DNA from: an uncultured Gammaproteobacteria bacterium
GTDB lineage: Bacteria > Patescibacteriota > Microgenomatia > UBA12405 > JAHJSD01
Assembly: GCA_964428655.1 (NCBI GenBank)
Contig: CAYRYE010000002.1
Span: 2,251-66,250, forward strand
DNA: 64,000 nt
Reading direction: 5' to 3'
Shown: positions 1,632-64,000 of the stretch, piece after piece
Layout: every line of letters starts with the position of its first letter
Position numbering within the stretch: the stretch's first letter is position 1
Position numbers and translations under genes: made by a program
The notes under the pieces: generated by a model
The model's input: only the letters and a program-made list of their open reading frames with translations
Databases searched by the model: none
Told to the model about the DNA's origin: nothing

Positions 1632-1640
1632 TTGTCCCAG

Positions 1641-1660
1641 GGTGCAGCAGCTGTTGCACC
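1641..1660. repeat. near-perfect 20-nt palindrome (GGTGCAGCAGCTGTTGCACC) 10 nt after the transposase stop
   Basis: Reverse complement differs at 2 positions. Could be a terminator or an IS200/RAYT-type hairpin substrate. Confidence 0.5.
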
Positions 1661-1736
1661 TGAAAGGTGCTATAGACATAGACAAGAAAACGGGATGTGC
1701 CTGTAAAGCCGGCGATGATAATCCTTATTAAAAGTA

Positions 1737-2264: not shown

Positions 2265-2276
2265 GAGCGTGGAGTT

Positions 2277-3216: not shown

Positions 3217-3218
3217 AC

Positions 3219-3686
3219 TCAGGACAATTCTATCTCCCCTGATTCGGAAATATCAATCTGTTTTGTTTTATTATTATAAGTCACAGTGATTGATTCTACC
3301 TCATCCACCACTCCCGATAAGCTTTGAAACTTAAAGCTGGCAATCCCGCATTGAGCAAGGGAATCTAACTCTATTGTCTCGGGACTAATACTCACTTCAC
3401 TCCCTGTTCCATCACGACAATTGGCAGTGACAACAAGATCGCAGTCGGCGGCAACATCAATTTGGTAATTACTGAAAAACAAACACTCAGGGTTAACTGG
3501 TTTTTCTCCGTTGATCGCTTTAAACCTAATCAACCGAAACTGAGAAACCAATTCCAGGCCCACTGATTCTACAACTTTTTTTTCGCGATAATTAGTCCAG
3601 CTCGCCAAACTAAAACTGGTCATAATTCCCATAATAGTAACCACAACCATTAACTCAACTAAAGTGAAGCCGTTCTTCTTCATCAA
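3219..3686 (-). CDS. type IV pilin-like protein
   Basis: 'MMKKNGFTLVELMVVVTIMGIM' class III signal peptide (G|FTLxE). Confidence 0.7.
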   Translation of the reverse strand: MMKKNGFTLVELMVVVTIMGIMTSFSLASWTNYREKKVVESVGLELVSQFRLIRFKAINGEKPVNPECLFFSNYQIDVAADCDLVVTANCRDGTGSEVSISPETIELDSLAQCGIASFKFQSLSGVVDEVESITVTYNNKTKQIDISESGEIELS

Positions 3687-4084
3687 GGATTAGTCACTTG
3701 ATAATTACAATTCCCAGGAGCAGTTCCACAATTGCTTCCACAATCGTCGGTTCCACCCGCATCAAGATAAGCGCAGAGAACATAAGAATAACCAGTAGCA
3801 GAATTGTAATAATAAGAATAGCCTTTTGGATCTTGAAGCGTTGTTGTAAGATAATCACCGGCACTTAAAGTGGGAACTAAATTGTCCCAATTTACTGCCG
3901 GGTAAGTCGCGTTATCGGACCGATGCATCTCCAAAGCTGCCCGAACTTGTTCCAAATCAGATTTTCTTTTTGAGTCGCGTCCTTTTTCTCGAGCGGCTCG
4001 ATAGCTGGTTACTCCAATTGCAGAAAGAAGAATAACAATAGAAATAGCTACCAATAGTTCGATTAGTGTAAATCCTTTTTTCAT
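3683..4084 (-). CDS. type IV pilin-like protein with Cys-rich C-terminus
   Basis: 'MKKGFTLIELLVAISIV'. C-terminal 'DDCGSNCGTAPGNCNY'. ATGA overlap with the downstream gene. Confidence 0.7.
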   Translation of the reverse strand: MKKGFTLIELLVAISIVILLSAIGVTSYRAAREKGRDSKRKSDLEQVRAALEMHRSDNATYPAVNWDNLVPTLSAGDYLTTTLQDPKGYSYYYNSATGYSYVLCAYLDAGGTDDCGSNCGTAPGNCNYQVTNP

Positions 4085-4536
4085 TGTAAATGTTTAATAC
4101 AAAATTTATCTGTTCCCGCGCTAAAACTACAACTGTCACCTCCACAAGTACACCCGCCGCAATTACCACCAGTAGTATCATCTAAACCAGCAAAAAAACA
4201 ATAATAGTCAGCCGAGCAATTAGTCATATCGTAACTCCCTGAAGAAGTCGGATCGCTGGGCACTTTTTCTAAAAGCGTATAGCCTCCTGTAGCAAAGGTG
4301 CTTCCGCTTGACGGACAACTTGCTCCCGAAGGATAGCTTTCCGCGATTGTCAAGTACTGCTCCATTGCTTGCTGAATACTTAAAAGGTCATCTCGACGGC
4401 GAGCATCACGAGCTCGTCTCTTTCCCCCCTGATACGAAATAATTCCTATAATCATAAGAACGCCAATTATTGAGGCTGTTACCAGGAGTTCAATAAGTGT
4501 AAAACCTCCGAGTCGGAGGTCAAACTCTTTTTTCAT
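4081..4536 (-). CDS. type IV pilin-like protein with Cys-rich C-terminus
   Basis: 'GGFTLIELLVTASIIGVLM'. C-terminal 'GGNCGGCTCGGDSCSFSAG'. Confidence 0.7.
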   Translation of the reverse strand: MKKEFDLRLGGFTLIELLVTASIIGVLMIIGIISYQGGKRRARDARRRDDLLSIQQAMEQYLTIAESYPSGASCPSSGSTFATGGYTLLEKVPSDPTSSGSYDMTNCSADYYCFFAGLDDTTGGNCGGCTCGGDSCSFSAGTDKFCIKHLQ

Positions 4537-4551
4537 TATTTGTATTTATCC

Positions 4552-4989
4552 TTACTGTTGACTGGGCATACAATAATAAGTCCCATCATTAGCCCAGGGA
4601 TCACAATCACTATCACTCGCATTACCGCCACTACCTTGCTCTAAAAGTGCGCAAACACAATAACTGGCGGCGCTACAGTTGCCGTCATTCACATAATAGC
4701 TGTAATCGGCTTCACCTCTATTTCTCCCTCTCGGATCAGTGGGCGGCCAAGCTCCTTGCCAAACTGTCGCTGCCATTGTGTCACAACTGGCATAAGCATC
4801 ATTAACAGCATAATATTGCTCAAAAGAGTCACTAATTGCTTTAATATCTGATTTAGCTCGGCTATCACGGGCTTTTTTTTGAGCATTAGAATAAGAAACA
4901 ACACCAAGAGCTACTAAAATTCCAATAATTGAAATTACTACTAAAAGTTCAAAAAGCGTAAAGCCCAAATTTGATTTTTGATTTTTCAT
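4552..4989 (-). CDS. type IV pilin-like protein with Cys-rich C-terminus
   Basis: 'MKNQKSNLGFTLFELLVVISIIGIL'. Start at the internal Met gives a 1-nt TGATG overlap with the upstream gene. The 5' end carries 2 copies of the AAAAATC heptamer. Confidence 0.7.
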   Translation of the reverse strand: MKNQKSNLGFTLFELLVVISIIGILVALGVVSYSNAQKKARDSRAKSDIKAISDSFEQYYAVNDAYASCDTMAATVWQGAWPPTDPRGRNRGEADYSYYVNDGNCSAASYCVCALLEQGSGGNASDSDCDPWANDGTYYCMPSQQ

Positions 4990-5414
4990 CACTCTCCACA
5001 AGCATAATAACAATTAACAGTACAATCGCAAACACAAATGGTGCCGCAGCGACTTAGTGACGCGCTTATTTCCTGATCGCCAGCATTTTCCAGCGAGGCA
5101 CAAACAAGAAAGTTGTCACCATCAGCCCCAACACAATAATTATATTCTCGACCGTCAACTGAATCCTGAGGAACCTGCTGCATATAGGGAGACCAAGAGC
5201 TGCCAAAAGAAAAAGTCCCCGCCAAAGGATAGGATTGATTATCATTATAGTAAAGTCTTAGGGCGCTCCTTACTTCATTCAAATCACTTTTCCTTCGAGA
5301 ATCCCTAGCTCTTTCTCGAGAGCTGACAAAATTTGGCAAAATCACACCAGCCAAAATGCCAATGATAAAAATGACTACCAGTAATTCAATTAAGGTAAAG
5401 CCCTTATTGTTCAT
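4989..5414 (-). CDS. type IV pilin-like protein with Cys-rich C-terminus
   Basis: 'MNNKGFTLIELLVVIFIIGILAG'. C-terminal 'CGTICVCDCTVNCYYACGE'. Confidence 0.7.
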   Translation of the reverse strand: MNNKGFTLIELLVVIFIIGILAGVILPNFVSSRERARDSRRKSDLNEVRSALRLYYNDNQSYPLAGTFSFGSSWSPYMQQVPQDSVDGREYNYCVGADGDNFLVCASLENAGDQEISASLSRCGTICVCDCTVNCYYACGE

Positions 5415-5893
5415 GGATTGGGTGTTGGTCTAATATTAGAACTGCTCATTACGTAACAATAACTGCCGCCATAACAGGTATATAAATCTTGGCAGTCAGG
5501 ATCTTGGTCATTTTCCAGAGCAGCGAATAAATAAAAATAACTGCCGTCACCGTTATAACAATATTGACCATCAGATGATGGATCTTTAGGCAGCACTTTC
5601 ATGTAGATAGCATTATTAGTGGAAAACTCTGTCCCCCAATCAAGACCCACTCCATCTACTTCAATTATTCCTGTGTCGACGGAGGGAGGATAGGCCTCAT
5701 GATCGTTATAATACATCTCTACAGCCCGGGTCACATTACCTAAATCAGCTTTTCTTTGGGCGTCACGAGCTTTCACCTGGCTGGTCCGGTACTGACCAAA
5801 CCCAACTGTGGCCAAAATCCCCAAAATAGCCATCACTACCAATAATTCTAATAGGGTAAAACCCTCCCTGAGTTTTGACATCTTTATCCGCAT
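5411..5893 (-). CDS. type IV pilin-like protein
   Basis: 'LREGFTLLELLVVMAILGILA'. C-terminal Cys pairs. Confidence 0.7.
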   Translation of the reverse strand: MRIKMSKLREGFTLLELLVVMAILGILATVGFGQYRTSQVKARDAQRKADLGNVTRAVEMYYNDHEAYPPSVDTGIIEVDGVGLDWGTEFSTNNAIYMKVLPKDPSSDGQYCYNGDGSYFYLFAALENDQDPDCQDLYTCYGGSYCYVMSSSNIRPTPNP

Positions 5894-6516
5894 GTTTCAT
5901 CCGGACAACAATAATAATCGTTTGGGCCTTGAAATATCCTTTCACCCTGAAAACAACTACACACGCCGCAATCACCCACCATGTCATAAGGATTCGGACA
6001 ACTGGCTGTATGAGGCGCCGGTTCTCTGGTTGTTGGACAAATAAAAGTAGTGGCTGGAACATCGCCAACAGCCACATTGGGGCTGGAAACACCGTAATTC
6101 ACTTCTTCTCCATCAATCGTCTCCCCCTCTTCCAGACCTAATCTCGAAATAGCTGGATCATCCTCATTTTCCAAAAAAGTATAAGCCTTATACCAAACAT
6201 AACAAGAACCTTCAATGTAAGTACCCACAAGACCTTTATAGGATTGATTAGTTGCCGGATCACAAGGAACTTTCTTCAAGTAAGGATCCAAATCATCGCT
6301 GCCGCAATTTTCAAGGATGGCAATGTCTGGATAACAGCCGTTGTCATTATAATAATCTTCAAAAGCAACTCTAATTCTTTCTAAATCATCCTTTCTTTTG
6401 GCATCCCTGCCTTTATTTAGCTGCCCCCGCAGTCCAAAATAAATTAAAAGAAGGGCTAAAATAATCGTTATAACAATCAGAATCTCTATTAAACTCACAC
6501 CCTTATTTTTATTCAT
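5884..6516 (-). CDS. type IV pilin-like protein with Cys-rich C-terminus
   Basis: 'MNKNKGVSLIEILIVITIIL'. Start at 6516 gives an ATGA overlap with the pilD stop. C-terminal 'CPNPYDMVGDCGVCSCF...YYCCPDETCG'. Confidence 0.65.
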   Translation of the reverse strand: MNKNKGVSLIEILIVITIILALLLIYFGLRGQLNKGRDAKRKDDLERIRVAFEDYYNDNGCYPDIAILENCGSDDLDPYLKKVPCDPATNQSYKGLVGTYIEGSCYVWYKAYTFLENEDDPAISRLGLEEGETIDGEEVNYGVSSPNVAVGDVPATTFICPTTREPAPHTASCPNPYDMVGDCGVCSCFQGERIFQGPNDYYCCPDETCG

Positions 6517-7349
6517 TTGAAAATTGAGAATTGAAAATTGAAAATTTCCAGCATCTTTTCTCCCCAAAACCAACTAACAAAAGTCGCTAAAACTAAAAAC
6601 GGACCAAAGGCGATTTGCTGGCCAAATTTCTTTTTTTTCAACAAAATCAGTATGACACCCAAAACAGCCCCAGTCAAGAAAGCAAGATAAAAGCCCAAAA
6701 CAGCTTTGGGAAATCCTAAGAAAAACCCTATGAAAAAGGAAAACTTGACATCCCCTAATCCCATACCTCGACCCCTAGTAATTAAATGTAAAAAAAGAAA
6801 AAAAGCGGCCGATACCAAGCCGGTTAACAAATAATTTCCCCAAATTCCTCCGAGGTGAAGAAAAAAAGTCAAAACGATTAACCCTCCCACTGCCCAATCA
6901 GGAATAATTTGGTAATGGAGATCAAAAAGAAAAACAGCAATCAAGATAGTAGATAATAGATAGTAGATAATAGATAATAAAATATTGGTGGATGAAATGG
7001 CAAATTTCCACGTTAATAAATAAACAACTCCCGTTCCCAACTCCACCAGCAAATACTCCCAGGGGATAGGGGAATGACAAGTGCGGCAACGACCGCGAAG
7101 CAACAAGAAAGAAACAATCGGAATGTTTTCCCACCATTTCAATTGCTGACCGCAATGGTCACACAGTGATCTCCCCCTTAGCCAATCTAATTTTTTTTGA
7201 CTCTTTTTATCACCTTGCCCTGAACCGCGCTTCAGGGACCGCCAAACCACAACATTCAAAAAGCTGCCCACCGCAGTACCTAAACCAAAGACTAAAGCCC
7301 TAAATAAAAGTACCATCTCTAAAACAACTCGGGCACACAAATCATACAC
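6513..7349 (-). CDS. pilD: prepilin peptidase (A24 family, PilD-like)
   Basis: N-terminal Zn knuckle 'CDHCGQQL...CRTCHSPI'. Catalytic-Asp motif 'GMGLGDVKF'. Multi-TM protein. Contains an internal 14-nt tandem duplication at 6944-6971. Confidence 0.8.
   Translation of the reverse strand: MYDLCARVVLEMVLLFRALVFGLGTAVGSFLNVVVWRSLKRGSGQGDKKSQKKLDWLRGRSLCDHCGQQLKWWENIPIVSFLLLRGRCRTCHSPIPWEYLLVELGTGVVYLLTWKFAISSTNILLSIIYYLLSTILIAVFLFDLHYQIIPDWAVGGLIVLTFFLHLGGIWGNYLLTGLVSAAFFLFLHLITRGRGMGLGDVKFSFFIGFFLGFPKAVLGFYLAFLTGAVLGVILILLKKKKFGQQIAFGPFLVLATFVSWFWGEKMLEIFNFQFSIFK
6517..6544 (-). repeat. heptanucleotide tandem repeat (TTGAAAA/TTGAGAA)x4 in the last codons of pilD, abutting the start of the next pilin
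   Basis: Direct reading. Encodes '...FNFQFSIFK*' of PilD. Confidence 0.75.
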
Positions 7350-7900
7350 CGCCCCTCAGTAAACGGAGGAGGACAAGCTATCGGGGGGTTATTGTAACCA
7401 CCACCAGCATCTTTCGCTTCAGCACTTCCAGTGGCCACCTTATTAGTATTAGCTTTGGGTTCGTAACAAACATAAGTTGACTGCTCCGTACTATTATAAA
7501 TAACGTGTAGCCTATCAATATCGTCCGATCCACTGGCAAATTGTTCTTTTTTTCTAAAGGACGATTTTAATTCTCCGGTCGTTATTAATTCTCCACTGGT
7601 TGCACAAGTAGCATCACCGCAGACACCGGAAAGAACCGCCTCGCCCACATCATCATAATCTTCAGTTCCATCTCCCCAGGAATAGTCCTGGTTAGAAGCG
7701 TAATATCTTTCAACCGCCGCTAATAATTCAGCCGCGTCGTTTTTAAATCTGGAATCTCTAGCCTTATTAATTTGCTCAATTGGATTCAAAGTAGCTATTA
7801 AGGCTGCTGCCAAAATACCAATCAGGGCAATAACAATCAATAACTCAACTAATGTGAAACCTGATTTTTGATTTTTGATTTTTGATTTTTGATTTTTCAT
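7319..7900 (-). CDS. type IV pilin-like protein (possible major pilin)
   Basis: 'KSGFTLVELLIVIALIGILAAA'. Strong RBS AGGAGGTG 5 nt upstream of the ATG at 7900. Five AAATCAA heptamer repeats immediately after the ATG. Confidence 0.7.
   Translation of the reverse strand: MKNQKSKIKNQKSGFTLVELLIVIALIGILAAALIATLNPIEQINKARDSRFKNDAAELLAAVERYYASNQDYSWGDGTEDYDDVGEAVLSGVCGDATCATSGELITTGELKSSFRKKEQFASGSDDIDRLHVIYNSTEQSTYVCYEPKANTNKVATGSAEAKDAGGGYNNPPIACPPPFTEGRCMICVPELF
7861..7897 (-). repeat. perfect heptanucleotide tandem repeat (TTGATTT)x5 on the plus strand, (AAATCAA)n in the coding frame of the pilin
   Basis: Direct reading of the sequence. The repeats lie at codons 2-13 of the pilin gene. The unit length is not a multiple of 3. 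Confidence 0.85.
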
Positions 7901-7922
7901 ATTCACCTCCTTTCAAAGTTAA

Positions 7923-9140
7923 CTAAAACTGACTTGTTAAATTATAAATCGGCATAATGATCGCAATTACCAAAAAACCAACTCCCAGCCCTAATAAAAT
8001 CATGATAAGCGGCTCTATTGCGCTTGTCAAGGTTTTAACTCTCTGTTCTGCTTCCATTTCAAAATATCGCGAAATATTGTTTAAAATTTCATCCAACTTG
8101 CCGGTCTGCTCACCAGTAGCAACCAATTGGGAAACTATTGGCGGAAAAGCTGGATTCTCAGCAATTGAATCTGATAAAAGTAATCCTTTCTCCACCCTTT
8201 TTGCCGATCGGTTCAGACCTTGATGAAATACTTCGTTGCCCGAAGCTTCACCGACAATTTTTAAAGCATCCACTAGGGGAACTCCTGTTCCCAACAGGGT
8301 CCCCAATGTCCTGGATATCTCTGTTAGAATCATTGCCTTAGTCAGAGGACCCATAACAGGAACTTTTAATTTTAACTCGTCAAGTTTTTTTCTAGTTTCT
8401 TTGTTTTTCTGAGCGGCACGAAAAGCTATTACCAACCCAACAATTAACAAGGGAAACAACCAGACATTTCTAGAAACAAAATCAGCAATGCCGATTAAAA
8501 CTCTCGTTGCCAGCGGCATTTCGGTACCAAATTCAGAATAAAGTGAAGTCATCTTGGGAATTACAAAAATCATCATAATAAAACTAACCACAACCATACC
8601 GATAATAATGATTGCCGGATAGATCATGGCTCCTTTCACTTTGCCCACAAACTCCTTTTTTTTCTCTAAATTATTCGCTAGCCTAAGCAAAACTTTATCC
8701 AAAACCCCTCCTTCCTCACCAGCTTTAATTGAGGCGATATAAACATTTCCAAAAACTTTTTTCTCTTTCTCCAAGGCTTTTCCCAAAGGATCACCTCCCT
8801 GCACCTTGGCTAAAACCTCCTCAATTATCTGTTCCATCCTGCCGCTGACTTGTTCTTTAATCAGTCCAAGGGCTTCAGTTAGAGGCAAACCAACATTAAT
8901 CATTGTTGACAATTGTCTGGTAAAGCCTACTATTTGGTTCGAAGAAATCCGCATTAAAAAAATCGACCTGAAATAGCCCAAAATCGTTTTCCGCTGAGAC
9001 TCCAAAGACAAAACAACTAGATCTCTCTCCTTCAATAAAACAATGGCTCCCTTGCGCTCCTTTGCTTCAACAACACCCTTGATAGTTTTTCCCTGCCAAT
9101 TTTTAGCTTTGAAAACAAATTTCTTCATCTCATTTAGCAA
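7923..9140 (-). CDS. pilC: type IV pilus / type II secretion platform protein (GspF/PilC family)
   Basis: 405-aa polytopic protein with duplicated T2SS-F domains ('...LSTMINVGLPLTEAL...', '...LGTLLGTGVPLVDAL...'). Confidence 0.85.
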   Translation of the reverse strand: MLNEMKKFVFKAKNWQGKTIKGVVEAKERKGAIVLLKERDLVVLSLESQRKTILGYFRSIFLMRISSNQIVGFTRQLSTMINVGLPLTEALGLIKEQVSGRMEQIIEEVLAKVQGGDPLGKALEKEKKVFGNVYIASIKAGEEGGVLDKVLLRLANNLEKKKEFVGKVKGAMIYPAIIIIGMVVVSFIMMIFVIPKMTSLYSEFGTEMPLATRVLIGIADFVSRNVWLFPLLIVGLVIAFRAAQKNKETRKKLDELKLKVPVMGPLTKAMILTEISRTLGTLLGTGVPLVDALKIVGEASGNEVFHQGLNRSAKRVEKGLLLSDSIAENPAFPPIVSQLVATGEQTGKLDEILNNISRYFEMEAEQRVKTLTSAIEPLIMILLGLGVGFLVIAIIMPIYNLTSQF

Positions 9141-10206
9141 TCGTTATTTTTTGCTGTCTCAGATAACGATTAAGCTCGTCTGGCCTGATCGCATATGATT
9201 GAGCTGTTTCCAAATTGACTTTGCCTTGACGTATCCAACTTGCCAATGAGCGCTCCAAAAGGACCATGCCTGATTCTAAAGAGGTTTGAATTATATTATC
9301 GATCATGTGGGTTTTGTTCTCCCGGATAGCTGTTTTGACCGCGGGATTAGATAAGAGAATTTCTACTGCCGGCACTCGCGAATTGTCAACCGTCGGTATT
9401 AACCTCTGAGAAACAACCGCCCCTAAAACACTAGCTAATTGCAAACTAATCTGTCGCTTTGATCCTTCGGGAAAAACATCAATGATTCTATCGATTGTCT
9501 GAGGAGCTGAATTGGTGTGAAGGGTAGAAAGAACTAAATGACCGGTTTCAGCAATAGTCAGAGCTGAAGCAATCGTTTCTAAATCTCTCATTTCGCCGAC
9601 AAAAACAACATCAGGATCTTCTCTTAAACACGAACGCAAAGCCTTCTTCCAACTTAAAGTATCATGACCAACTTCCCTTTGAGAGATAATCGACTTTCGC
9701 GGTTCCAATATGTATTCAATCGGATCTTCAATGGAAACAATGTGAACTTTTTGATTCTCATTAATTTCTTTTAGGATCGAGGCCACTGTTGTTGATTTTC
9801 CATGACCGGTTGGCCCAGTCACCAGAATAAACCCTTGTCTTAAAGCGGCAAATTGATAAAGAATTTCAGGTAAATTCAATTCCTTGATAGTAGGAACCTC
9901 AGCCTGAATTGCCCTGAGGGCGATTGCCATACTGCCTTGGGCAAAATAGGCGTTGGCTCTAAAGCGGGAGCCATCCGGCAAGGCGTAAGAAAAATCTATC
10001 TCTTTATTGTCTAAAAACAATTGTTTTTGTTTTTCGTCTAAAGTGGCAAGAACCAGAGATTTTGCCTGTTCTGACTCAAGAACGCCGGCACCAGTAACGG
10101 CCTGTAGATCACCATTAATCCGCAATGTTGGTGGAATACCAACAATCAGGTGCAAATCAGAAGCTTTGTTTTTTATTGTTAATTCCAAAAGCTGTCTTAT
10201 ATTCAT
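9130..10206 (-). CDS. pilT: twitching-motility ATPase PilT
   Basis: Walker A 'GPTGHGKSTT'. 'VFVGEMRDLETI'. 'AETGHLVLSTLHTNSA'. 358 aa. Confidence 0.85.
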   Translation of the reverse strand: MNIRQLLELTIKNKASDLHLIVGIPPTLRINGDLQAVTGAGVLESEQAKSLVLATLDEKQKQLFLDNKEIDFSYALPDGSRFRANAYFAQGSMAIALRAIQAEVPTIKELNLPEILYQFAALRQGFILVTGPTGHGKSTTVASILKEINENQKVHIVSIEDPIEYILEPRKSIISQREVGHDTLSWKKALRSCLREDPDVVFVGEMRDLETIASALTIAETGHLVLSTLHTNSAPQTIDRIIDVFPEGSKRQISLQLASVLGAVVSQRLIPTVDNSRVPAVEILLSNPAVKTAIRENKTHMIDNIIQTSLESGMVLLERSLASWIRQGKVNLETAQSYAIRPDELNRYLRQQKITIAK

Positions 10207-10208
10207 GT

Positions 10209-11942
10209 TTAGAATTCTGCTACTCGCAAGACCTCCTCAATAGTGGTGATTCCTTCCAAAACTTTTAAATATCCATCCTGCTTGATGGTAATCATGCCTT
10301 TTTTTCTAGCCTCTCTCTCAATATCTAAAGCCGCTGATTTCTCAATAATTAACTTTGAAATTTGTTCATCAATCTCCATCACTTCAAAAATGCCAATCCT
10401 GCCATGATAACCAGTTTTCCCACACTCGTCACAACCCTTACCTCTCCAAAAGGTTAACTCATTTCTTACCGTCTGCTTCTGCTGACTTCCCAAGGCTGTT
10501 TGATAAAGGTTGCCCAAAACAGCTTTAAAGTTTTCAATTACTTTTGCATCTGGAAGATAACTTTCCTTACAATTAGAACAAATCTTGCGCAAAACCCTTT
10601 GGGCAACAACACAGGTTAAAGACGATACTAACAAGAAAGGCTCCGCTCCCATATCAATCAGTCGAGGCGGCGCCCCGGCGGCATCATTAGTGTGAAGGGT
10701 AGAAAAAACTAAATGGCCAGTTAGGGCGGCATGAACAGCCAACTGGGTGGTTTCTTCATCTCTGATCTCACCAACCATAATGATATCTGGATCCTGACGC
10801 AGAAATGAACGAAGAGCTGAAGAAAAAGTCAAGCCTGCCTGAGGATTTACTTGGACCTGATTAACTCCTTCCAATTGATACTCAACTGGATCTTCAATCG
10901 TCATCACATTAACTTTAATCGTACTTATTTTGCGCAGGGCTGAATACAAAGTAGTTGTTTTCCCTGAACCAGTTGGGCCGCAAACAATTAACATTCCCTG
11001 GGGTCGGCTTATAGCCTCCTGGACACTTCTCAATCCTCTTCCCCTAAGGCCCAGCTCCGTTAAGCTGGGAATTTTTGACTGTTTTTTCAAAAGCCGCATC
11101 ACTGTCTTTTCCCCATAAACTGTTGGGGCAGTCGAAACTCGCAGATCAACCTCATCGCCATCAGCAATAAAATTAAACCTCCCATCTTGGGGAATCCTTC
11201 TTTCGTCAATCTTCATATCAGATAAAATCTTTATTCTGGAAACTACGGCATCATGAACGCGTTTGGGTAAAATCAGTTTTTCTTGAAGGATTCCATCAAC
11301 GCGATACCGGACTCGTGTGTCTTTTTCTTGAGGCTCAATGTGAACATCTGAAGCCCGAGAACGAATGGCAAATTGTAAAATTGTCGAAACAACCTTAGCT
11401 ACCGGAGCCTCACGGATTACCTCATCTATATGCTCAAGATCAAGTAATTTACCCTTCTTTTCAGTTTCTTTCAATGCATGCTTTACTTGGGTCGTCAACT
11501 CTTGGTCATATCTGTCACTGATGGCTCTCTTTACCTGCTCAAGCAAAGCCATGTGGGGCACAATTCTCATTTCTGTTTTTTTCTCCAAAAACTCGATTGT
11601 CTCCAAATCCAAGGGATTAGCCATGGCCACCAAAAGCCTTTTTGTCTTTTCGTCAAAATCAAAGGGAATTAACCAATACTTCTCTGCTACACTCCGGGGA
11701 ACAAAGGAAACCGATACTGGAGAAAAGCCAACCTTGTCTAGATCAACAAATGGAACTCCATATAACTCTGCTTTTGCCTGGAAAATTTTTTCTCTACCAG
11801 CCAGCTTCTTCTTCTCAATGATTTCTTCTTCTGCCTCGCCAGTCTGTAAATGAAAAAGCTCTATTTTCTTAGCCTGCTCTTCGGTCAATATGCCTTTTTC
11901 TTTCAAAATAGAAGCGATTGTTCTTTTGGTTATAGCTGTCAT
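10209..11942 (-). CDS. pilB: type IV pilus assembly ATPase PilB (GspE family)
   Basis: Walker A 'CGPTGSGKTTTLY'. 'MVGEIRDEETTQLAVHAALTGHLVFSTLHTND'. Tetracysteine 'CSNC...CDEC'. N-terminal GSPII_E_N-like region. Confidence 0.85.
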   Translation of the reverse strand: MTAITKRTIASILKEKGILTEEQAKKIELFHLQTGEAEEEIIEKKKLAGREKIFQAKAELYGVPFVDLDKVGFSPVSVSFVPRSVAEKYWLIPFDFDEKTKRLLVAMANPLDLETIEFLEKKTEMRIVPHMALLEQVKRAISDRYDQELTTQVKHALKETEKKGKLLDLEHIDEVIREAPVAKVVSTILQFAIRSRASDVHIEPQEKDTRVRYRVDGILQEKLILPKRVHDAVVSRIKILSDMKIDERRIPQDGRFNFIADGDEVDLRVSTAPTVYGEKTVMRLLKKQSKIPSLTELGLRGRGLRSVQEAISRPQGMLIVCGPTGSGKTTTLYSALRKISTIKVNVMTIEDPVEYQLEGVNQVQVNPQAGLTFSSALRSFLRQDPDIIMVGEIRDEETTQLAVHAALTGHLVFSTLHTNDAAGAPPRLIDMGAEPFLLVSSLTCVVAQRVLRKICSNCKESYLPDAKVIENFKAVLGNLYQTALGSQQKQTVRNELTFWRGKGCDECGKTGYHGRIGIFEVMEIDEQISKLIIEKSAALDIEREARKKGMITIKQDGYLKVLEGITTIEEVLRVAEF

Positions 11943-12017
11943 CGCTACTATTCATATTGGCACAACAAAAAAACAAATTCAAGAGCGCCAAAAATGTTAG
12001 AATAGCAATAATAGATT

Positions 12018-17776: not shown

Positions 17777-17847
17777 GGGCTTGTAGGTAAATGGCATACC
17801 ACTCCGGTCGCATCGGAGAATTCCGGGTTCAACTCCCGGCAAGTCCA
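17777..17847 (+). tRNA. tRNA-Ala (anticodon CGC)
   Basis: Hand-folded cloverleaf. Acceptor GGGCTTG/CAAGTCC with the G3:U70 Ala identity pair. D-stem GGTA/TACC. Anticodon loop GTCGCAT. T-arm CCGGG-TTCAACT-CCCGG. Discriminator A. CCA not encoded. Confidence 0.7.
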
Positions 17848-21474: not shown

Positions 21475-21560
21475 CCAGGGGTGGCGGAGTGGTCAAACGC
21501 ACGAGTCTGTAAAACTCGCGGGTTATCCCTACGTAGGTTCGAATCCTACCCCCTGGACCA
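21475..21560 (+). tRNA. tRNA-Tyr (anticodon GTA), class II with long variable arm, C1:G72 acceptor pair, CCA encoded
   Basis: Hand-fold. Acceptor CCAGGGG/CCCCTGG. Anticodon stem CGAGT/ACTCG with loop CTGTAAA. Variable arm of about 14 nt. T-arm GTAGG-TTCGAAT-CCTAC. 3' end ACCA. Confidence 0.7.
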
Positions 21561-26326: not shown

Positions 26327-28504
26327 GTGACAATAAAAATTTTGCCCTCAAGAAAAAAAATACTTCAGAAAGCCTCTCTAATTTTGCTTTTCACCACCTT
26401 TGTCTCTTTATTACTTTCCTTTATCTTCATCATAAAATACAAAAAATTAAGTCAGTACATGCCTTACACCTCAATACCTTTTTCCCAATCCAAGCCCAAT
26501 GTTACTACCTGTCAGCAAAGAATTGATCCCTCTGGCTGGAAAATCGAAGATGGACAATTAATTACTTTTCCCCACTGTCTCACAGTAGTCAATTCCAGAT
26601 TTGGATCCCGGTTCAGCTTTAATTGGTACTTTTCCCAACAAGAAGTTACCTCTAGCGTCCTAGGCACTTTAGAAGACAGAAATACTCATTTAGTCATAAG
26701 AATCAAACGGGGTAATCAAGAAGAGCAGATTTTTCCTCTCCTACCCAACGGAAATTTTACGACCCAGTCTGTTAACCTAGGTTTGACCAGCCAGAAAACT
26801 GTCTTTAAAAATAATCATCTTGATTTTCTCTTAGATATTATTTCTCCTTTTTCACCAAGTGATTCAGCTGAAAGTAGAACTAACCAAATAAATAGCGCTC
26901 CATTTTTTTATCTTGATCTTTCCCTAGTCAACAGGAGCGATTCCGAGGAAGAAGTAGTAATTGACTTTCTTTTAACTAATTATCAGGAAGTTAAGCAGCG
27001 AAAACATTATGAGACCATTTACCTAAACGATCAAGTGAGAAGTGACGGAATAAGAGCTTTAAGCTGGGCTAAAGATCCAGGAGTGAAGGCAATTACTGGT
27101 AACAAATTGACTGGTGCCAGTTGGAAAGTAAAATTAGCTCCACTAAGTTCCCAAACAAAAACTTTAGTCTACGCTGGATTCTTAGATAAAGAAATACTGA
27201 TTGACGCTAGCTCAGAGAAAGAAAGAAAATTAATATTTGCCTACAATCGTTGGTTTGATGATATTGATGAGGTAATTGACTTTGCTTTTTTAAATGAAAA
27301 AGAAATCAGGAAAAAAAGTGAAGATTTTGAAAAAATGGTTTTAACTTCGTCTCTTTCTCCTCAACAAAAATGGCTTTTGGCCCAAACTTTTCATTCTTAT
27401 TTAAGCAACACTTGGTTAGTCTATGAGCCAAAGAAAAAGAATGAATTAGAATATTACGTTTGGGAAGGGGAGTTTAAGTATCTTAATACTGTTGATGTTG
27501 CTTACGATTATGCCCTTTTTGAAGGGAAATATTTTCCCTGGGTAATTAAACTAGAGCTTGAATCCTGGAAAAAACACGCCAAAAAGGATGAGAAGGGGAT
27601 AGTAATCCCTCATGACTTGGGTAGGCGCTTTCGGATTGCTGGCTCCCAAGCTTATACTTTCACTAAAAAGGGGGATGAGGAAAGAAATAAAACTTCCATC
27701 ATGCCTGTTGAAGAAAATGCTAATTTCATTCTTTTAACTTACTGGTATTGGAAAAAAAGCAACGATAATCAGTTTCTCGATAATTTGCTGCCTCTAATAA
27801 ATAATCTTGTTGATTCTTTAATTGCCCGAGATAGCAACAACAATGGAATCGCCGACAAAGATATCGGCATTACCACCTATGATAATGATGGCAATTTGGC
27901 TTTAAAAGAAGGTCCTGACAACAGCTATCTAGCCTTAAAACAATTGGCCGCTTACTTAACAGTCGAGGAAATGTCTCAATTTCTCAATAATCACGATCTC
28001 AAGGAGAAAAGTGGCAAGCAAGCTCAATTAATAACTCAAAGTCTTAAAGAAGCGTACCAAAACCATGGTTTAATTCCTTTGTCTTTGGACCCTCAGTTTG
28101 TGAAAGAAGAAAGTCATACTATTATTACCGGCCTTCTTTATCCGGCCATTACCAATCTTAAATCAAAATACCTAGAAGAACTAATTCCTATTTTAAAGGA
28201 AAATTATCGCAGGACTTATGAAAAAAGTTTAGTAAAAGATTCAAAAGGAAAAATAATTGGTCTCAAACTGGCTGAAAATCAATCCTTAGACTTAGGCTGG
28301 TTCTCCCATAGTGTTGTTGCTGATATTGTTGCCCAAAAGCTCTTTAATCAAAATTATCAATCAGAGATAGTTTTCTTCCCCTATCTTTATGATAATCCTT
28401 ATAGTTTTGCTGACGGTCAATATTTTAAAAAACCTTTTGACTCAATCAAAACTTCTCTTATTTTTTACCCTCGAGGGGTTGTTATTTTCGGAAAGGAATG
28501 GTGA
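26327..28504 (+). CDS. large membrane-anchored hypothetical protein (725 aa), possibly (alpha/alpha)6-barrel glycoside-hydrolase-like
   Basis: N-terminal TM anchor. Central and C-terminal region rich in W/Y/D ('TYWYWKKSNDNQF', 'NNNGIADKDIGITTYDNDGN'). The fold assignment is a guess. Confidence 0.45.
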   Translation: MTIKILPSRKKILQKASLILLFTTFVSLLLSFIFIIKYKKLSQYMPYTSIPFSQSKPNVTTCQQRIDPSGWKIEDGQLITFPHCLTVVNSRFGSRFSFNWYFSQQEVTSSVLGTLEDRNTHLVIRIKRGNQEEQIFPLLPNGNFTTQSVNLGLTSQKTVFKNNHLDFLLDIISPFSPSDSAESRTNQINSAPFFYLDLSLVNRSDSEEEVVIDFLLTNYQEVKQRKHYETIYLNDQVRSDGIRALSWAKDPGVKAITGNKLTGASWKVKLAPLSSQTKTLVYAGFLDKEILIDASSEKERKLIFAYNRWFDDIDEVIDFAFLNEKEIRKKSEDFEKMVLTSSLSPQQKWLLAQTFHSYLSNTWLVYEPKKKNELEYYVWEGEFKYLNTVDVAYDYALFEGKYFPWVIKLELESWKKHAKKDEKGIVIPHDLGRRFRIAGSQAYTFTKKGDEERNKTSIMPVEENANFILLTYWYWKKSNDNQFLDNLLPLINNLVDSLIARDSNNNGIADKDIGITTYDNDGNLALKEGPDNSYLALKQLAAYLTVEEMSQFLNNHDLKEKSGKQAQLITQSLKEAYQNHGLIPLSLDPQFVKEESHTIITGLLYPAITNLKSKYLEELIPILKENYRRTYEKSLVKDSKGKIIGLKLAENQSLDLGWFSHSVVADIVAQKLFNQNYQSEIVFFPYLYDNPYSFADGQYFKKPFDSIKTSLIFYPRGVVIFGKEW

Positions 28505-44555: not shown

Positions 44556-44640
44556 GCCGTGGTGCTGGAATTGGCAGACAGGCTGGTCTCAAAAACCAGT
44601 GTCCCTTTGGGACATGAGGGTTCGACTCCCTCCCACGGCA
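44556..44640 (+). tRNA. tRNA-Leu (anticodon CAA), class II
   Basis: Hand-fold. Acceptor GCCGTGG/CCACGGC. D-stem CTG/CAG with a GG loop. Anticodon stem CTGGT/ACCAG with loop CTCAAAA. Variable hairpin GTCCC-TTT-GGGAC. T-arm GAGGG-TTCGACT-CCCTC. Discriminator A. Confidence 0.75.
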
Positions 44641-48837: not shown

Positions 48838-48911
48838 GGTGGCTGTAGCTCAGTGGTTAGAGCATCTCGCTGTGAACGAGAAGGTCAGGGGTTCAAATCC
48901 CCCCAGCCACC
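48838..48911 (+). tRNA. tRNA-His (anticodon GTG) with genomically encoded G-1
   Basis: Hand-fold. G-1 pairs with C73. Acceptor GTGGCTG/CAGCCAC. D-arm GCTC-AGTGGTTA-GAGC. Anticodon stem TCTCG/CGAGA with loop CTGTGAA. T-loop TTCAAAT. Confidence 0.8.
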
Positions 48912-60339: not shown

Positions 60340-60954
60340 TCACTCATTGTCATTCAGACACTTGATCCAGTCTTTAGTATTGACAAGTCCATTACTATCA
60401 AGGTCATACTTGGCGTCTTTAGTTCCAAACTTCTCTTTGAATTCTGATATTGTACATTGAGTCACTTTTCCCCCCGCTGACGCCGTCGGCGCGGCAGCAA
60501 CCGAAGTTGGTGTGGCTACAACCACCGTCGGCGCAGCAACAACTGAAGTCGGAGTCACCACACCCGCTTCCCCAGTAGCACTCTTAGTTTTGAAAGAATA
60601 GGGAATACCATTGTTGTCATAAATTGTCTCCCCTACTCTAACCCGAAAATAATAAGTTGTACTTTCTTTCAAAGGAGAAAGAACAACTCGATGAACCGTG
60701 CTTGGCTGAGTTTCCAACGCCCGAAGCAAAAGACTAGCCGGAGTTGTTCCATATTCAACTACTCCTTGGGACTCTTTCTCCGTCTGCCAAGAAATACTTG
60801 CTGACTTAACATCAGGTTGAGCGCGCACACTTTTAGGCTCGGTACCGGCGGCCGCTCCGCTCAGATAAGTTTTAGCGGCCCGCAAACCAACTACTGCCAA
60901 AACGCCGCTTAAGAGTAAAATCACAATAATGATAACTGTTTTTATGTTTTTCAT
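60340..60954 (-). CDS. signal-anchored FN3-like protein with PT-linker and C-terminal single dockerin/EF-hand-like repeat
   Basis: FN3-like 'SASISWQTEKESQGVVEYGTT...TYYFRVRV'. Linker 'TPTSVVAAPTVVVATPTSVAAAPT'. 'DLDSNGLVNTKD'. Confidence 0.45.
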   Translation of the reverse strand: MKNIKTVIIIVILLLSGVLAVVGLRAAKTYLSGAAAGTEPKSVRAQPDVKSASISWQTEKESQGVVEYGTTPASLLLRALETQPSTVHRVVLSPLKESTTYYFRVRVGETIYDNNGIPYSFKTKSATGEAGVVTPTSVVAAPTVVVATPTSVAAAPTASAGGKVTQCTISEFKEKFGTKDAKYDLDSNGLVNTKDWIKCLNDNE

Positions 60955-60956
60955 TT

Positions 60957-61643
60957 TTACAAAGCCATCAAGGTGCCTAATAAAACCATTATCCCCCCAC
61001 CAAGCAATGAAATCAATAATGGAGTCTCAATTCCTGTTTCCGGTAGCTGACTGGGGGTTGCAGTGGGCTCTCCCGGAACACTCGTGGGAGCAGTTGTGGG
61101 AGCAGTTGTAGGAACAGTTGTAGGCTCACCAGCGCCGCTACCAATAGTATAAGTTCCAGAGCCATTAGCAGCACAATCAATCAAGTCATTGCCCTGAGCA
61201 TCCCAAATCGCCGAGTCACTATCATTACCAGACTGGCAAAGAAAAGAAACGGAAGCAGGTCCTTCGGCGATTGCCTTAAAAGTAATCGTAGCTAAAGTAC
61301 CAACTTCGCTTTTAGTTTGAAGCGCTTGAGTTGAAAAGGAGTAAATAGTCATTCGGCCGTTATCATTCTCAATATTATAATCAAAACCACTAAAGTATCC
61401 TCCATCAGCAACTTGTTTTACCTCCAGCCTGCTATTATCAAAATTAATCAATGCATCAGCAGCCATCGCTTCTTTGTTGCCAGGATCAATCTCTACCAGC
61501 ACATCAAACTCACTACTATTAGCGGGACTACTTGATGATGGATCAAGATAAAGTCTTGGGCCGGCCCCAGCTCGAATTGGACCGACAAATAAGGCCAAGA
61601 ACAAAAAAAGACCGCCTAAACAAACAATTCTTTTTTTAATCAT
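60957..61643 (-). CDS. cohesin-domain surface protein with C-terminal LPETG sortase-sorting signal
   Basis: Signal peptide. Cohesin-like 'FDVLVEIDPGNKEAMAADALINFDNSRLEV...GTLATITFKAIAEGPASVSF'. PT linker. 'LPETG' followed by a hydrophobic tail. Confidence 0.6.
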   Translation of the reverse strand: MIKKRIVCLGGLFLFLALFVGPIRAGAGPRLYLDPSSSSPANSSEFDVLVEIDPGNKEAMAADALINFDNSRLEVKQVADGGYFSGFDYNIENDNGRMTIYSFSTQALQTKSEVGTLATITFKAIAEGPASVSFLCQSGNDSDSAIWDAQGNDLIDCAANGSGTYTIGSGAGEPTTVPTTAPTTAPTSVPGEPTATPSQLPETGIETPLLISLLGGGIMVLLGTLMAL

Positions 61644-61649
61644 TATTAT

Positions 61650-62234
61650 TTACTCAACAGTGATAGTAAAATCCTCAGTCAAAAAGAGTACTTTTTCTGC
61701 TGTTGTATTTTCAGCTAAAACTGTTCCCGCTTCGCCCTCTCCGCCAATAATTTTCAAGCCAGTCCTGCCTGGCTGTTTGGCTGAGTATTGAATAGTAACT
61801 AAATTCACTTCATCCCCCGCCTCAAAACTAATTCCCTCGGGTAATTCAGTCTCGAGCAAAGAAACTAAAACCCGCTTTTTCTCTGGCTCAATCCAGTTTC
61901 TAGCCACATAAGAAAACCTATCAGAGGGGATAATTCCAAGAACTTCCAAATAGTCAGGGTCATACTCAATTAAAATATCAACCCCGTCTAGAGAAACATT
62001 CTTAAAAGGAGTCATAATTACACTTACCTCAGACTCTTCATTGATTTTTACGGCCTCTTCTCCCGAAAAGGTAATCAATGCCTCCTTTTCTTCCTCGAGG
62101 ATTGCCGGAACTGTTGTTTCAGTAGATAAATCTTCCGAAGTTCTCTTAGTTATTTTCTGAACAATTAAAACACTCTCCAAAATAACCAAAATTGCCAAAA
62201 CAGGAATTAACCACTTTACTTTTTTAAAATTCAT
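61650..62234 (-). CDS. cohesin-like domain protein, signal-anchored
   Basis: 'VSLDGVDILIEYDPDYLEVLGIIP...VNLVTIQYSAKQPG' cohesin-like beta sandwich. Confidence 0.5.
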   Translation of the reverse strand: MNFKKVKWLIPVLAILVILESVLIVQKITKRTSEDLSTETTVPAILEEEKEALITFSGEEAVKINEESEVSVIMTPFKNVSLDGVDILIEYDPDYLEVLGIIPSDRFSYVARNWIEPEKKRVLVSLLETELPEGISFEAGDEVNLVTIQYSAKQPGRTGLKIIGGEGEAGTVLAENTTAEKVLFLTEDFTITVE

Positions 62235-62303
62235 TTTACCTCCCTAATAACTTTCTATAATTGTAGAACTATTTAAACATATAATTATCAAGATATGCAA
62301 GCA

Positions 62304-63461
62304 TTAAATTTCCTCTTCATATTTGGTGCTGAGTGTAGCCAAGAGAAAGACAATATCTTGCGGATTAACTACACCGTTGAAATTAAGATCCTCTTTTAAC
62401 CCCTCACCCCTGGTTCCCAAAGCTTGTTTTAATTGAGAAAAGTCGGTGCTGTCTACTACCCCATCTTGGTTTATATCCCCTGGCTCTAGTTCTAAACCTG
62501 TCCAATCATAGTTATTTTCTCCCGGACCAAACTCTACACCCTCTTCACTTAACCAGCAACGTTCTTTTTGCTCATCATAGCAAAATTTCCTGGCCAGGTG
62601 CACTGGACCTTTAATTAAAACGGCATAATTCTTTCCAATAGGAACACCAATTAACTCAAGATTGCCAGTACCAACTGCATTTTCATCAAAGGTTACCAGC
62701 ACATCTTTGAACTCCTCCCTGAAATCTCCCTTCTTAACAACAATCACAACTTTTTGATCAGGAATATCGCTAACTGTTACCTGTTCCTCACCAACCCTAT
62801 AACTAGTTCCCACCAGTTTAATTTTGAAAGTTAACTCTGGCCAATCCCCTAGTCCTTCGGTTGGAGTAATTTCTCCAGTCGGAGTCACCTGTGTTGGTTC
62901 CTCTTCTACCACCTCCACAGAGGCTGGAGTAAAACTATCCAAACTCAAAGTTCTATCAATGTTACCTTCTTGACCCCTGGAACCAACAATTCTATACTCG
63001 CCCACTCGATCAACACTACTCGAGCCAATTTGGGCTGCTCCAAAAGTAATCACGGCAAAATCAAACACATCTTGATATAATTGCTCCCTGCTAATTGTAG
63101 AAACTGCAGAAATCCTTAACTCTCCAGTTTGGTTGGCCTGTTCAATTCTAGCCATTCCTTGAAAAAGAGCATCTAACTGAACATCAACCACAGTTAAAAT
63201 TGATTTGTCAAAAGACAAAACTAAATCAACCCCATTAACAAGATAAGCATTATCCCCCTGGCCTGGATTAATATTCACCCTTAAGTTGAAAGTATCACCA
63301 AGGCCTACTTCCCTCTCACTTGGTAAAACTCTGGCTGTGACTCCGCCATAAAAAGCTTTTCTTCTTGTTTCTTGGGATTGTCTAAGCAAAATTAATCCGG
63401 CAACCAAAGCTATTCCTAAAATGATCAAGAAAACAAATTGATTCTTTTTTACCTTTTTCAT
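62304..63461 (-). CDS. scaffoldin-like protein: N-terminal cohesin-like domain plus C-terminal type-I dockerin (two repeats)
   Basis: Cohesin-like 'NGVDLVLSFDKSILTVVDVQLD...GELRISAVS'. Dockerin repeats 'DINQDGVVDSTDFSQL' and 'DLNFNGVVNPQDIVFL'. Confidence 0.6.
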   Translation of the reverse strand: MKKVKKNQFVFLIILGIALVAGLILLRQSQETRRKAFYGGVTARVLPSEREVGLGDTFNLRVNINPGQGDNAYLVNGVDLVLSFDKSILTVVDVQLDALFQGMARIEQANQTGELRISAVSTISREQLYQDVFDFAVITFGAAQIGSSSVDRVGEYRIVGSRGQEGNIDRTLSLDSFTPASVEVVEEEPTQVTPTGEITPTEGLGDWPELTFKIKLVGTSYRVGEEQVTVSDIPDQKVVIVVKKGDFREEFKDVLVTFDENAVGTGNLELIGVPIGKNYAVLIKGPVHLARKFCYDEQKERCWLSEEGVEFGPGENNYDWTGLELEPGDINQDGVVDSTDFSQLKQALGTRGEGLKEDLNFNGVVNPQDIVFLLATLSTKYEEEI

Positions 63462-63497
63462 TCTTTATTTATATTAAGCAAAAAAATTAATTAAAAA

Positions 63498-64000
63498 TCA
63501 ACTTCCAATCCATTCATCATACCAGAAACCGAAATCTTCCAAGCCAACTGTCCCGTCACAACTAAAATCAGCATAAAGATTATCACTTTCCAATATAAAA
63601 TCATCATACCAACCGGCAAAATCTTCTATACCAATTACCCCATCACAATTATAATCAGGAGAAGCTTCAATTCTTCTTCCATCCGGACAAAGTTTGCAAC
63701 CCTCGGGCCCAGTTGGAACACTTGTCGCCGTTGGTTGGCCCGGCGCTGTTGTTGCTGTGGGGCCGCTGGGCGGCTGAGTCGGCTGGCTATCCGAAACACA
63801 AGCACTATAACCATCAGTCCAGTGAGTCCCGCTTGGCGGATAGAGCTGACAATTCAAAGCGCCGGCTGAACCCTCTCTTTTTCCACAACCGGAATTTCCT
63901 GGACAATAAGCAGTAACACATTGAACCGCACAGCCCGGCTTTGTCGCACTCCCGCAGTCGGCATCGCTCCCGCAAACTTGACCAGGCTGAGGTGTTACCG
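63498..64000 (-). CDS. dockerin-containing Cys-rich secreted protein (5'-partial; N-terminus lies beyond the window end)
   Basis: Dockerin repeats 'DYNCDGVIGIEDFAGW' and 'DFSCDGTVGLEDFGFW'. The frame stays open with no stop from 63857 to 64000 (Cys/Gly-rich). The track start is a TTG. Confidence 0.55.
   Translation of the reverse strand, partial: VTPQPGQVCGSDADCGSATKPGCAVQCVTAYCPGNSGCGKREGSAGALNCQLYPPSGTHWTDGYSACVSDSQPTQPPSGPTATTAPGQPTATSVPTGPEGCKLCPDGRRIEASPDYNCDGVIGIEDFAGWYDDFILESDNLYADFSCDGTVGLEDFGFWYDEWIGS

Follow-up and report, generated by a model that had tools for sequence, protein, structure and literature searches.

At the end of a 64,000-nucleotide stretch of DNA (hereafter the window; contig CAYRYE010000002.1 of assembly GCA_964428655.1, positions 2,251 to 66,250), five consecutive minus-strand open reading frames (ORFs) at 60340-64000, labelled A to E in transcription order, appear to form one operon for a non-enzymatic display system that is built on cohesin-dockerin modules and specific to a lineage of Patescibacteria (candidate phyla radiation, CPR), a reading to which we give a probability of about 0.65. 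The operon encodes cohesins in B, C and D, a canonical dockerin preceded by an X module in B, a divergent two-repeat dockerin in A and a module with a single calcium (Ca) loop in E, and N-terminal export or anchor helices were found in all five proteins. The ORFs lie on one strand throughout, separated by gaps of 36, 69, 6 and 2 nucleotides (nt) for A-B, B-C, C-D and D-E, respectively. When hidden Markov models (HMMs) built from the modules of A to E were searched against the 64-kb window, matches were restricted to these five genes, and the next-best matches were cross-matches among them.

A first-pass annotation of this DNA had described a five-gene cohesin/dockerin cluster. The cluster is real, but E is not a cohesin gene; its product is an FN3-like protein with only half a dockerin. 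All of the peptides quoted in that annotation were located in the consecutive minus-strand ORFs: GTLATITFKAIAEGPASVSF and the LPETG motif with its hydrophobic tail in ORF 60957-61643 (D), ILIEYDPDYLEVLG in ORF 61650-62234 (C), DINQDGVVDSTD and DLNFNGVVNPQD in ORF 62304-63461 (B), and DYNCDGVIGIED and DFSCDGTVGLED in the ORF ending at 63498 (A). The features of the operon are as follows, with lengths in amino acids (aa).

63498-64000, minus: gene A, 3' part, frame open to base 63998
63501-63704, minus: A-type dockerin module, last 68 aa, 'GCKLCPDG' followed by two Ca-loop and helix repeats, DYNCDGVIGIEDFAGWYDDF and DFSCDGTVGLEDFGFWYDEW
62304-63461, minus: gene B, 385 aa, with membrane anchor, cohesin, linker, X module and dockerin (Pfam, alignment)
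63354-63461, minus: B N-terminal membrane helix and 'QETRR-A' motif, residues 1-36 (alignment)
62907-63341, minus: B cohesin, about residues 41-185 (Pfam Cohesin)
62487-62846, minus: B X module, about residues 206-325, a predicted beta-sandwich with two invariant Cys (AlphaFold 2 [AF2], Foldseek)
62307-62486, minus: B dockerin, about residues 326-385, two canonical Ca-loop and helix repeats (Pfam Dockerin_1)
61650-62234, minus: gene C, 194 aa, with N-terminal membrane helix, disordered linker and divergent cohesin (family, fold)
61653-62084, minus: C cohesin, residues 51-194 (AF2, Foldseek, hhalign)
60957-61643, minus: gene D, 228 aa, anchoring cohesin (Pfam)
61563-61643, minus: D signal peptide
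61140-61562, minus: D cohesin (Pfam Cohesin)
61050-61139, minus: D Pro/Thr linker
61032-61046, minus: D LPETG, residues 200-204
60960-61031, minus: D hydrophobic tail, 24 mostly hydrophobic residues
60340-60954, minus: gene E, 204 aa, with conserved membrane helix, FN3-like domain, linker and C-terminal single-loop module (Pfam, alignment)
60586-60837, minus: E FN3-like domain (Pfam Pur_ac_phosph_N, 4e-10)
60343-60468, minus: E C-terminal module (C-module), 42 residues, Cys-bracketed, single Ca-loop and helix, 'C..SEFKEKFGT..YDLDSNGLVNTKDWIKC'

B is a predicted adaptor scaffoldin with an X-dockerin dyad

The first-pass annotation had pointed to one scaffoldin-like protein with cohesin and dockerin together, and this protein is B, in which both modules passed their Pfam thresholds. 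The dockerin scored 35.3 bits against the Dockerin_1 (PF00404) cut-off of 22.9, and its profile matched solved dockerins (1ohz_B at 1.3e-5); the cohesin passed marginally, with 24.8 bits against the Cohesin (PF00963) cut-off of 24.1, and was aligned with the D cohesin by hhalign at a probability of 98.2% (E 3e-14). Judged from its domain composition, B is a predicted monovalent adaptor scaffoldin. AF2 models were made of C and of B residues 200-385, and the latter was modelled with a predicted local distance difference test score (pLDDT) of 91 and a predicted template modelling score of 0.86. In a Foldseek search with this model, the 8 best matches in the PDB were all type II X-dockerin dyads (E 6e-7 to 3e-5), from Clostridium thermocellum CipA (2b59_B, 5g5d_B, 3kcp_A, 4fl4) and A. 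cellulolyticus ScaA (4wi0_B, 4u3s_B), and the alignments (174-205 columns) covered both the X module and the dockerin; the ninth match was unrelated (E 1.5e-3). The C-terminal half of B is thus, by its modelled fold, a type II X-dockerin dyad.

A motif of the form Q-E-T-R-R-x-A follows the N-terminal membrane helix of B and is common to A-type proteins, B-type proteins and several neighbouring genes in relatives; its carriers are B of the window, A of the overlapping locus L001 described below, and also proteins of the related loci L005, L008, L012, L015 and L018, and it is absent from C, D and E. The membrane helix together with this motif could be a lineage-specific export or processing signal, and we know of no description of the motif.

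D carries a cohesin and a non-canonical sorting signal

The D cohesin passed the Pfam Cohesin model with 38.6 bits against a cut-off of 24.1; its profile gave only insignificant matches when compared with the PDB. The annotation had also described a cohesin with a C-terminal LPETG followed by a hydrophobic tail; the motif and the tail are present in D, while the basic residues that usually end such a signal are missing. The motif, in the form LPETG, LPEAG or LPDAG with a following 'ETP', was kept in all eight orthologues (8/8), and the linker ahead of it varied among them in both length and sequence. Because the motif is conserved while the linker varies, the comparison argues for the D C-terminus being a functional, if non-canonical, sorting signal. 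D also showed a weak match to the sortase-dependent surface protein model NF053819 (E 0.0037, 17.7 bits vs cut-off 47). A sortase gene was looked for in the window and in 20 loci, using the TLxTC motif and phmmer with a Staphylococcus aureus SrtA query, and none was found. A complete Microgenomates genome is reported to encode a sortase (PMC7143001).

C is a divergent cohesin by family and fold

The window copy of C had no Pfam match. At the level of the family, 15 of 21 members matched PF00963 at E <= 1 (best 3.7e-6). The AF2 model of C had a pLDDT above 90 over residues 50-194, and the top 50 PDB matches in the fold search were all cohesins, with E-values down to 2.9e-9 and TM-scores up to 0.80; the nine-stranded beta jelly-roll, checked by model for C alone, was present. 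By hhalign, C was aligned with B at a probability of 96.5% but with D at merely 33%, and therefore the link between C and the other cohesins was drawn via B and via the fold. On the basis of the family-level Pfam matches, the profile link to B and the predicted fold, C is a divergent cohesin.

The membrane helix of C (62139-62219) is unusually conserved and has an invariant Glu-Ser inside the helix. The membrane helix of E (60880-60954) is likewise unusually conserved, its N-terminal 38 residues being 76% identical across genomes, with an invariant Arg directly after the helix. The conservation of these two helices hints at helix-helix contacts in the membrane.

A is a Cys-rich protein ending in a divergent dockerin

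The first-pass annotation had observed that the last gene, A, runs off the window, which follows from its frame staying open to base 63998, and extension of the contig recovered the full gene as one uninterrupted 808-aa ORF (L001 7538-9964). The N-terminus of the protein (L001 7538-7680) is a membrane helix or anchor. Its body consists of 13 mini-modules of 33-63 residues, each with 6 or 8 Cys (84 Cys in total, 10.4% of residues), and Pro/Thr-rich linkers of 6-28 residues separate these modules. The near-identity of modules 326-360 and 425-459 suggests that A underwent an internal duplication recently. The Cys-rich body had no sequence match in Pfam, NCBIfam or the PDB (full-length A against the PDB; A against Pfam and NCBIfam). 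In the public gene call the 808-aa ORF is broken into three short genes of 148, 73 and 207 aa, and a 704-aa version of A is present in the protein library (P0063).

The two C-terminal loops of A follow the pattern D-x-[DN]-x-[DN]-G and are 29 residues apart, a spacing equal to that in B; the module is laid out as loop-helix, short linker and loop-helix, with no helix entering the first loop. The window copy of this module gave no Dockerin_1 match and stayed below the gathering score of PF00404. Among A-orthologous modules, 5 of 8 matched PF00404 at E <= 10, the best at 2.9e-4, still under the gathering cut-off. A word-indexed homologue search with the 80-aa C-terminal module of A returned no candidate. 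An exhaustive phmmer search with the module found 75 relatives, in which the match was nearly always at the extreme C-terminus, and among the 64 neighbours scanned (E <= 1e-3), 30 carried Dockerin_1 (best 8e-28) and 8 carried EF-hand_7. The A module was aligned with the B dockerin by hhalign over 49 columns and both repeats (probability 64%, E 6.6e-5), and its top PDB profile match was a Ruminococcus flavefaciens dockerin (5lxv_B, 7.5e-4). From these sequence comparisons we conclude that the C-terminal module of A is not a generic EF-hand pair but a divergent dockerin, in which position 4 of the loop is a Cys. Across the Pfam models PF00963 and PF00404, the recognition of cohesins and dockerins in the first-pass annotation therefore held for the D and B cohesins and the B dockerin, all of which passed, and not for the window copies of C and of the A module, which fell below the thresholds.

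A dockerin modules were variable, with a mean column identity of 45%. The bodies of A-type proteins also differed greatly among relatives, consisting of Cys-rich modules, CARDB or two weak cohesin-like repeats, with the C-terminal module shared.

E carries a single Ca loop

The C-module of E does not have the duplicated Ca-binding repeat of a dockerin; one loop and one helix are present. By hhalign it was aligned with one dockerin repeat over 15 columns at a probability of 62%, and its best PDB match was a dockerin (E 0.041). The module thus weakly resembles one dockerin repeat. Its layout is comparable to that of the single-loop group-2 dockerins of R. flavefaciens, a likeness in layout rather than an established homology.

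Conservation of the operon in related genomes

An exact match to the B protein was found on a 238-kb metagenome contig of the Joint Genome Institute and on three shorter contigs. The longest of these, locus L001, was identical to the window over 11,697 shared nt and reaches 10 kb past the window end. B had 33 homologue clusters, two of which are named at NCBI, both as 'Patescibacteria group bacterium', and NCBI labels some of the operon homologues as cohesin or dockerin domain-containing. Ten of 12 related genome records (L009-L015, L017-L019) are titled 'uncultured Gammaproteobacteria bacterium', in conflict with the Patescibacteria protein names; the records appear to be mislabelled or to bear placeholder titles.

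In at least eight related contigs the gene order was divergent Wzy_C, Bac_transf, at least one A-type gene, B, C, D, E, YqeY, YbeY and DnaX, and the protein identity of the operon across these contigs was 40-60%. A mobile element or prophage origin was considered and rejected because the operon lies in conserved synteny with YbeY, DnaX, CysRS, S6 and SSB. A scan of the operon for promoters and terminators found sites no more numerous than in shuffled sequence.

Expanded operons were observed in two relatives (L005 7933-19554; L018 3806-13062). In L005 the A-B-C trio is duplicated and D and E are single-copy; the dockerins of the two B paralogues are 78% identical and their cohesins 35% identical. 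Both L005 and L018 encode an extra protein of 434-441 aa with two weak cohesin-like repeats and an A-type dockerin (Cohesin E 1.4e-4, below the cut-off), which suggests further adaptor layers.

Beyond the window end, upstream of A, lies a conserved glycan cluster (L001 1-7500) that occupies the same position in L005 and L008. It comprises two Wzy_C-domain proteins, glycosyltransferases, a WecG-type transferase and the Bac_transf initiating transferase; in L001, L005 and L008, Bac_transf is directly upstream of A and co-directional with it, and the Wzy_C and glycosyltransferase genes are divergent. A link between this cluster and glycosylation of the Pro/Thr linkers is possible.

Proposed assembly of the display system

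In the assembly that we propose, D would be fixed at the envelope via LPETG and its hydrophobic tail, either by sortase-type attachment to peptidoglycan or else by a plain tail anchor. The X-dockerin dyad (XDoc) of B may plug into the D cohesin, a pairing suggested by analogy because XDoc-bearing scaffoldins bind anchoring scaffoldins in known cellulosomes. The fast-evolving cohesin of B, the membrane-bound C, or both, would then capture the dockerin of the variable, Cys-rich A, which would be held out from the cell on its Pro/Thr linkers, and the single loop of E may occupy D or C, as truncated dockerins do on ScaE of R. flavefaciens. The products of the neighbouring Wzy_C, glycosyltransferase and Bac_transf genes, which are syntenic, may either glycosylate these linkers or be responsible for an associated glycan. 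The A cargo has no catalytic domain, and therefore the system would probably serve to shape the cell surface or to adhere to a substrate or host cell, and not to degrade polymers.

Evolutionary rates were compared as mean pairwise identity over the same six genomes. The slow-evolving modules were the D cohesin (69%), the B dockerin (68%), the B X module (61%) and the E C-module (71%), and the fast-evolving modules were the B cohesin (35%) and the C cohesin (49%); the A dockerin modules, as noted above, varied as well. This rate pattern, together with the duplication of A-B-C in L005, fits, but does not prove, a D-B base with pairing of B or C to A.

The annotation had favoured a surface assembly over a cellulosome, and this agrees with what was found, there being no dockerin-bearing glycoside hydrolase in the window. 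More broadly, the cohesin and dockerin proteins of the operon and their orthologues showed neither a catalytic domain nor a carbohydrate-binding module (CBM), and because enzymes and CBMs are lacking in it we do not regard the system as a cellulosome.

Attachment to a host would be a reasonable role in a Patescibacterium; in the Saccharibacterium Southlakia, growth on the host requires a protein with a dockerin domain (PMC10633639). A bolder version, which we consider doubtful, is that the operon encodes a host-attachment organelle of a non-Saccharibacteria CPR lineage, with D and B as a conserved base, A-B-C as a rapidly diversifying, duplicable cassette, export by way of a lineage-specific N-terminal signal (the membrane helix with the QETRR-A motif) and linkers glycosylated by the adjacent genes. 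In that version the disulfide-knotted mini-domains would be displayed in arrays by the A-B-C cassette, to act as host-specific adhesins or as toxin-like effectors, and, if true, a cohesin-dockerin system would have been repurposed for inter-bacterial episymbiosis.

Alternative explanations

Several observations weigh against a display system built on cohesin-dockerin pairing. The possibility raised in the first-pass annotation that the dockerin-type repeats are generic Ca sites was partly borne out for A, the window copy of which scored as a generic EF-hand (EF-hand_7, 17.7 bits, below the cut-off of 30); the relatives of the module and its alignment with B favour a dockerin. The E module is statistically weak as a dockerin. 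Neither Lys nor Arg follows the hydrophobic stretch of D in any of the eight orthologues (8/8), D had no match to Gram_pos_anchor or to generic LPXTG models at E <= 1, and a sortase, which the annotation had suggested looking for elsewhere in the genome, was not found in the window or in related loci of about 270 kb. Whereas D has a signal-peptide-like N-terminus, the other four proteins begin with membrane helices that are apparently kept; if uncleaved, these helices would give a geometry unlike that of secreted cellulosome parts. Finally, partners were assigned by analogy and by their matching evolutionary rates, and such a match could arise from phylogeny alone.

Much of this would also be expected if the five products were independent membrane-tethered surface proteins, in which the Ig folds and Ca loops act separately (e.g., in Ca2+-dependent stabilisation or glycan binding), with no specific pairing and with LPETG merely part of a tail anchor. 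The better fit of the A window copy to EF-hand models than to Dockerin_1, the single loop of E, the lack of a basic tail on D, the failure to find a sortase in the window or fetched loci, and the presence of own membrane helices in four of the five proteins all agree with this explanation. We nevertheless regard it as quite unlikely, considering that the dockerin of B is canonical and passes its threshold, that the X-dockerin dyad of B, a type known solely from cohesin-binding contexts, is modelled with confidence, that different lineages retain the three cohesins and the three dockerin-type modules in a single operon, and that LPE(T/A)G stays constant next to a drifting linker. In another explanation, the operon encodes only the scaffold of a genuine cellulosome-like system, and dockerin-bearing hydrolases (glycosidases, proteases, lipases) from other parts of the genome would dock on the cohesins of B, C and D and digest polymers or the host envelope. 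The anchor, adaptor and XDoc architecture is indeed that of cellulosomes. Distant relatives of the A-type dockerin occur in other organisms on Peptidase_S8, GDSL lipase, Peptidase_M64, VWA and Laminin_G_3 proteins, and genes for enzymes with dockerins could lie in other parts of this genome. The window also contains a 725-aa protein with a Glyco_hydro_52 or six-hairpin glycosidase-like region (26327-28501, plus strand; E 3.7e-24), the sole glycoside-hydrolase-like gene noticed there. This gene, 34 kb away, qualifies the statement in the first-pass annotation that no obvious glycoside hydrolase is nearby, but its product matched no dockerin HMM of the lineage and carries no dockerin. In the 64 kb, the 10 kb upstream and the eight related loci, the dockerin carriers were solely A-type proteins (Cys-rich or CARDB), B and E, none of them catalytic, and no component has a CBM; Patescibacteria genomes are, moreover, small and poor in polymer-degrading enzymes. 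An enzyme scaffold therefore seems unlikely.

The operon might instead be a glycan or S-layer-related envelope module, the products being partners or acceptors of the Wzy_C, glycosyltransferase and Bac_transf pathway (e.g., O-glycosylated, capsule-organising wall proteins), so that cohesin-dockerin contacts would serve envelope assembly and not adhesin display. In keeping with this are the co-directional Bac_transf gene adjoining A upstream, beside the divergent Wzy_C and glycosyltransferase genes (L001, L005, L008), and the long Pro/Thr linkers in A, B, D and E; Wzy_C is also a domain of O-oligosaccharyltransferases. Adjacency is, however, the sole direct link, and an envelope module of this kind is compatible with a display system and not exclusive of it; as a separate explanation we rate it very unlikely. 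On balance, we prefer the enzyme-free display system.

Comparison with known cohesin-dockerin systems

The closest described system is, by analogy, the sca cluster of R. flavefaciens. There, ScaE has a single cohesin and is fixed to the wall by way of LPXTG and sortase; its partners are the XDoc dyads of both ScaB and CttA (PMC5301203) and also naturally truncated single-loop dockerins (PMC12270676). Like the operon described here, it is a single gene cluster; ScaE, with one cohesin and LPXTG, would correspond to D, the C-terminal X-module-dockerin dyad of ScaB and CttA and the ScaC-like monovalent adaptor (one cohesin and one dockerin) would both correspond to B, and the truncated single-loop dockerins on the anchor cohesin are a possible analogue of E. 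By the terms of one recent genome survey (PMC11557425), D would be classed as a 'nonSLH-anchoring' scaffoldin, and B would count as a 'monovalent adaptor'. Unlike the sca cluster, however, the present operon has neither dockerin-bearing glycoside hydrolases nor CBMs and its putative cargo is a Cys-rich modular protein, its components keep N-terminal membrane helices, the sorting signal of D has no basic tail, and the host is a Patescibacterium and not a Firmicute. Also, in the fold search the XDoc of B resembled not the type III dyad but type II dyads, those of A. cellulolyticus and C. thermocellum.

In C. thermocellum, the XDoc of CipA and the type II cohesins of SdbA, OlpB and Orf2p offer a second parallel. 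The model of B residues 200-385 superposes on the CipA dyad (2b59_B, E 5.7e-7), and CipA, too, is a scaffoldin attached to a cell-surface anchor by XDoc. Differences are that the anchor here has an LPXTG-type tail where the C. thermocellum anchors have S-layer homology (SLH) domains, that there is one cohesin here where CipA has nine, that there is no CBM3, and that sequence identity is merely 13-16%.

Non-cellulosomal cohesin-dockerin modules are already known, including the NagJ/NagH toxin complexes of C. perfringens and archaeal and other bacterial modules, and they share with the present operon a use outside cellulose degradation. The weak sequence matches of C included the NagJ cohesin (2ozn and 2jh2, E about 0.05), and its fold matches included 2jh2 and 2vo8. 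Those pairs join enzymes or toxins to one another, whereas here a CPR lineage conserves a complete operon of anchor, adaptor and cargo that is free of enzymes. SEML1_0315 of Southlakia epibionticum (Saccharibacteria) is likewise a dockerin-bearing envelope protein of a Patescibacterium, essential in epibiotic growth, for which host-glycan adhesion or degradation was proposed (PMC10633639). It belongs to a different class of Patescibacteria, no cohesin partner or such operon is reported there, and the likeness is by description only. In the searchable literature we found neither this operon nor any other cohesin-dockerin system of the anchor-adaptor-cargo type described for Patescibacteria.

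What is known of the attachment of Patescibacteria/CPR cells to hosts or surfaces comes mostly from a few cultured Saccharibacteria, and the operon, with its anchor, its adaptor, two additional modules and a cargo that varies, offers a conserved and small system that is testable without cultivation. If our reading is right, the anchor and XDoc-adaptor logic of cellulosomes extends to an enzyme-free context in a very distant phylum, and the three compact cohesin-dockerin pairs might serve as orthogonal connectors in protein engineering.

Other features of the window

A type IV pilus gene cluster is present on the minus strand at 2280-11942. Encoded there are a prepilin peptidase (6516-7349), a platform protein of the PilC type (7926-9140) and a pair of T2SSE ATPases (9133-10206 and 10212-11942), along with four or more pilin-like proteins that have the N-terminal methylation motif.

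GC skew was strongly negative (-0.15 to -0.30) over minus-strand genes and near zero or positive over plus-strand genes (40001-64000 and 1-12000), a pattern that amounts to a marked G excess on the coding strand. Strand disparity is reported for a Microgenomates genome (PMC7143001). Four tRNA genes (17777-17847, 21475-21557, 44556-44640 and 48839-48911) were the sole Rfam matches at the gathering threshold in the window.

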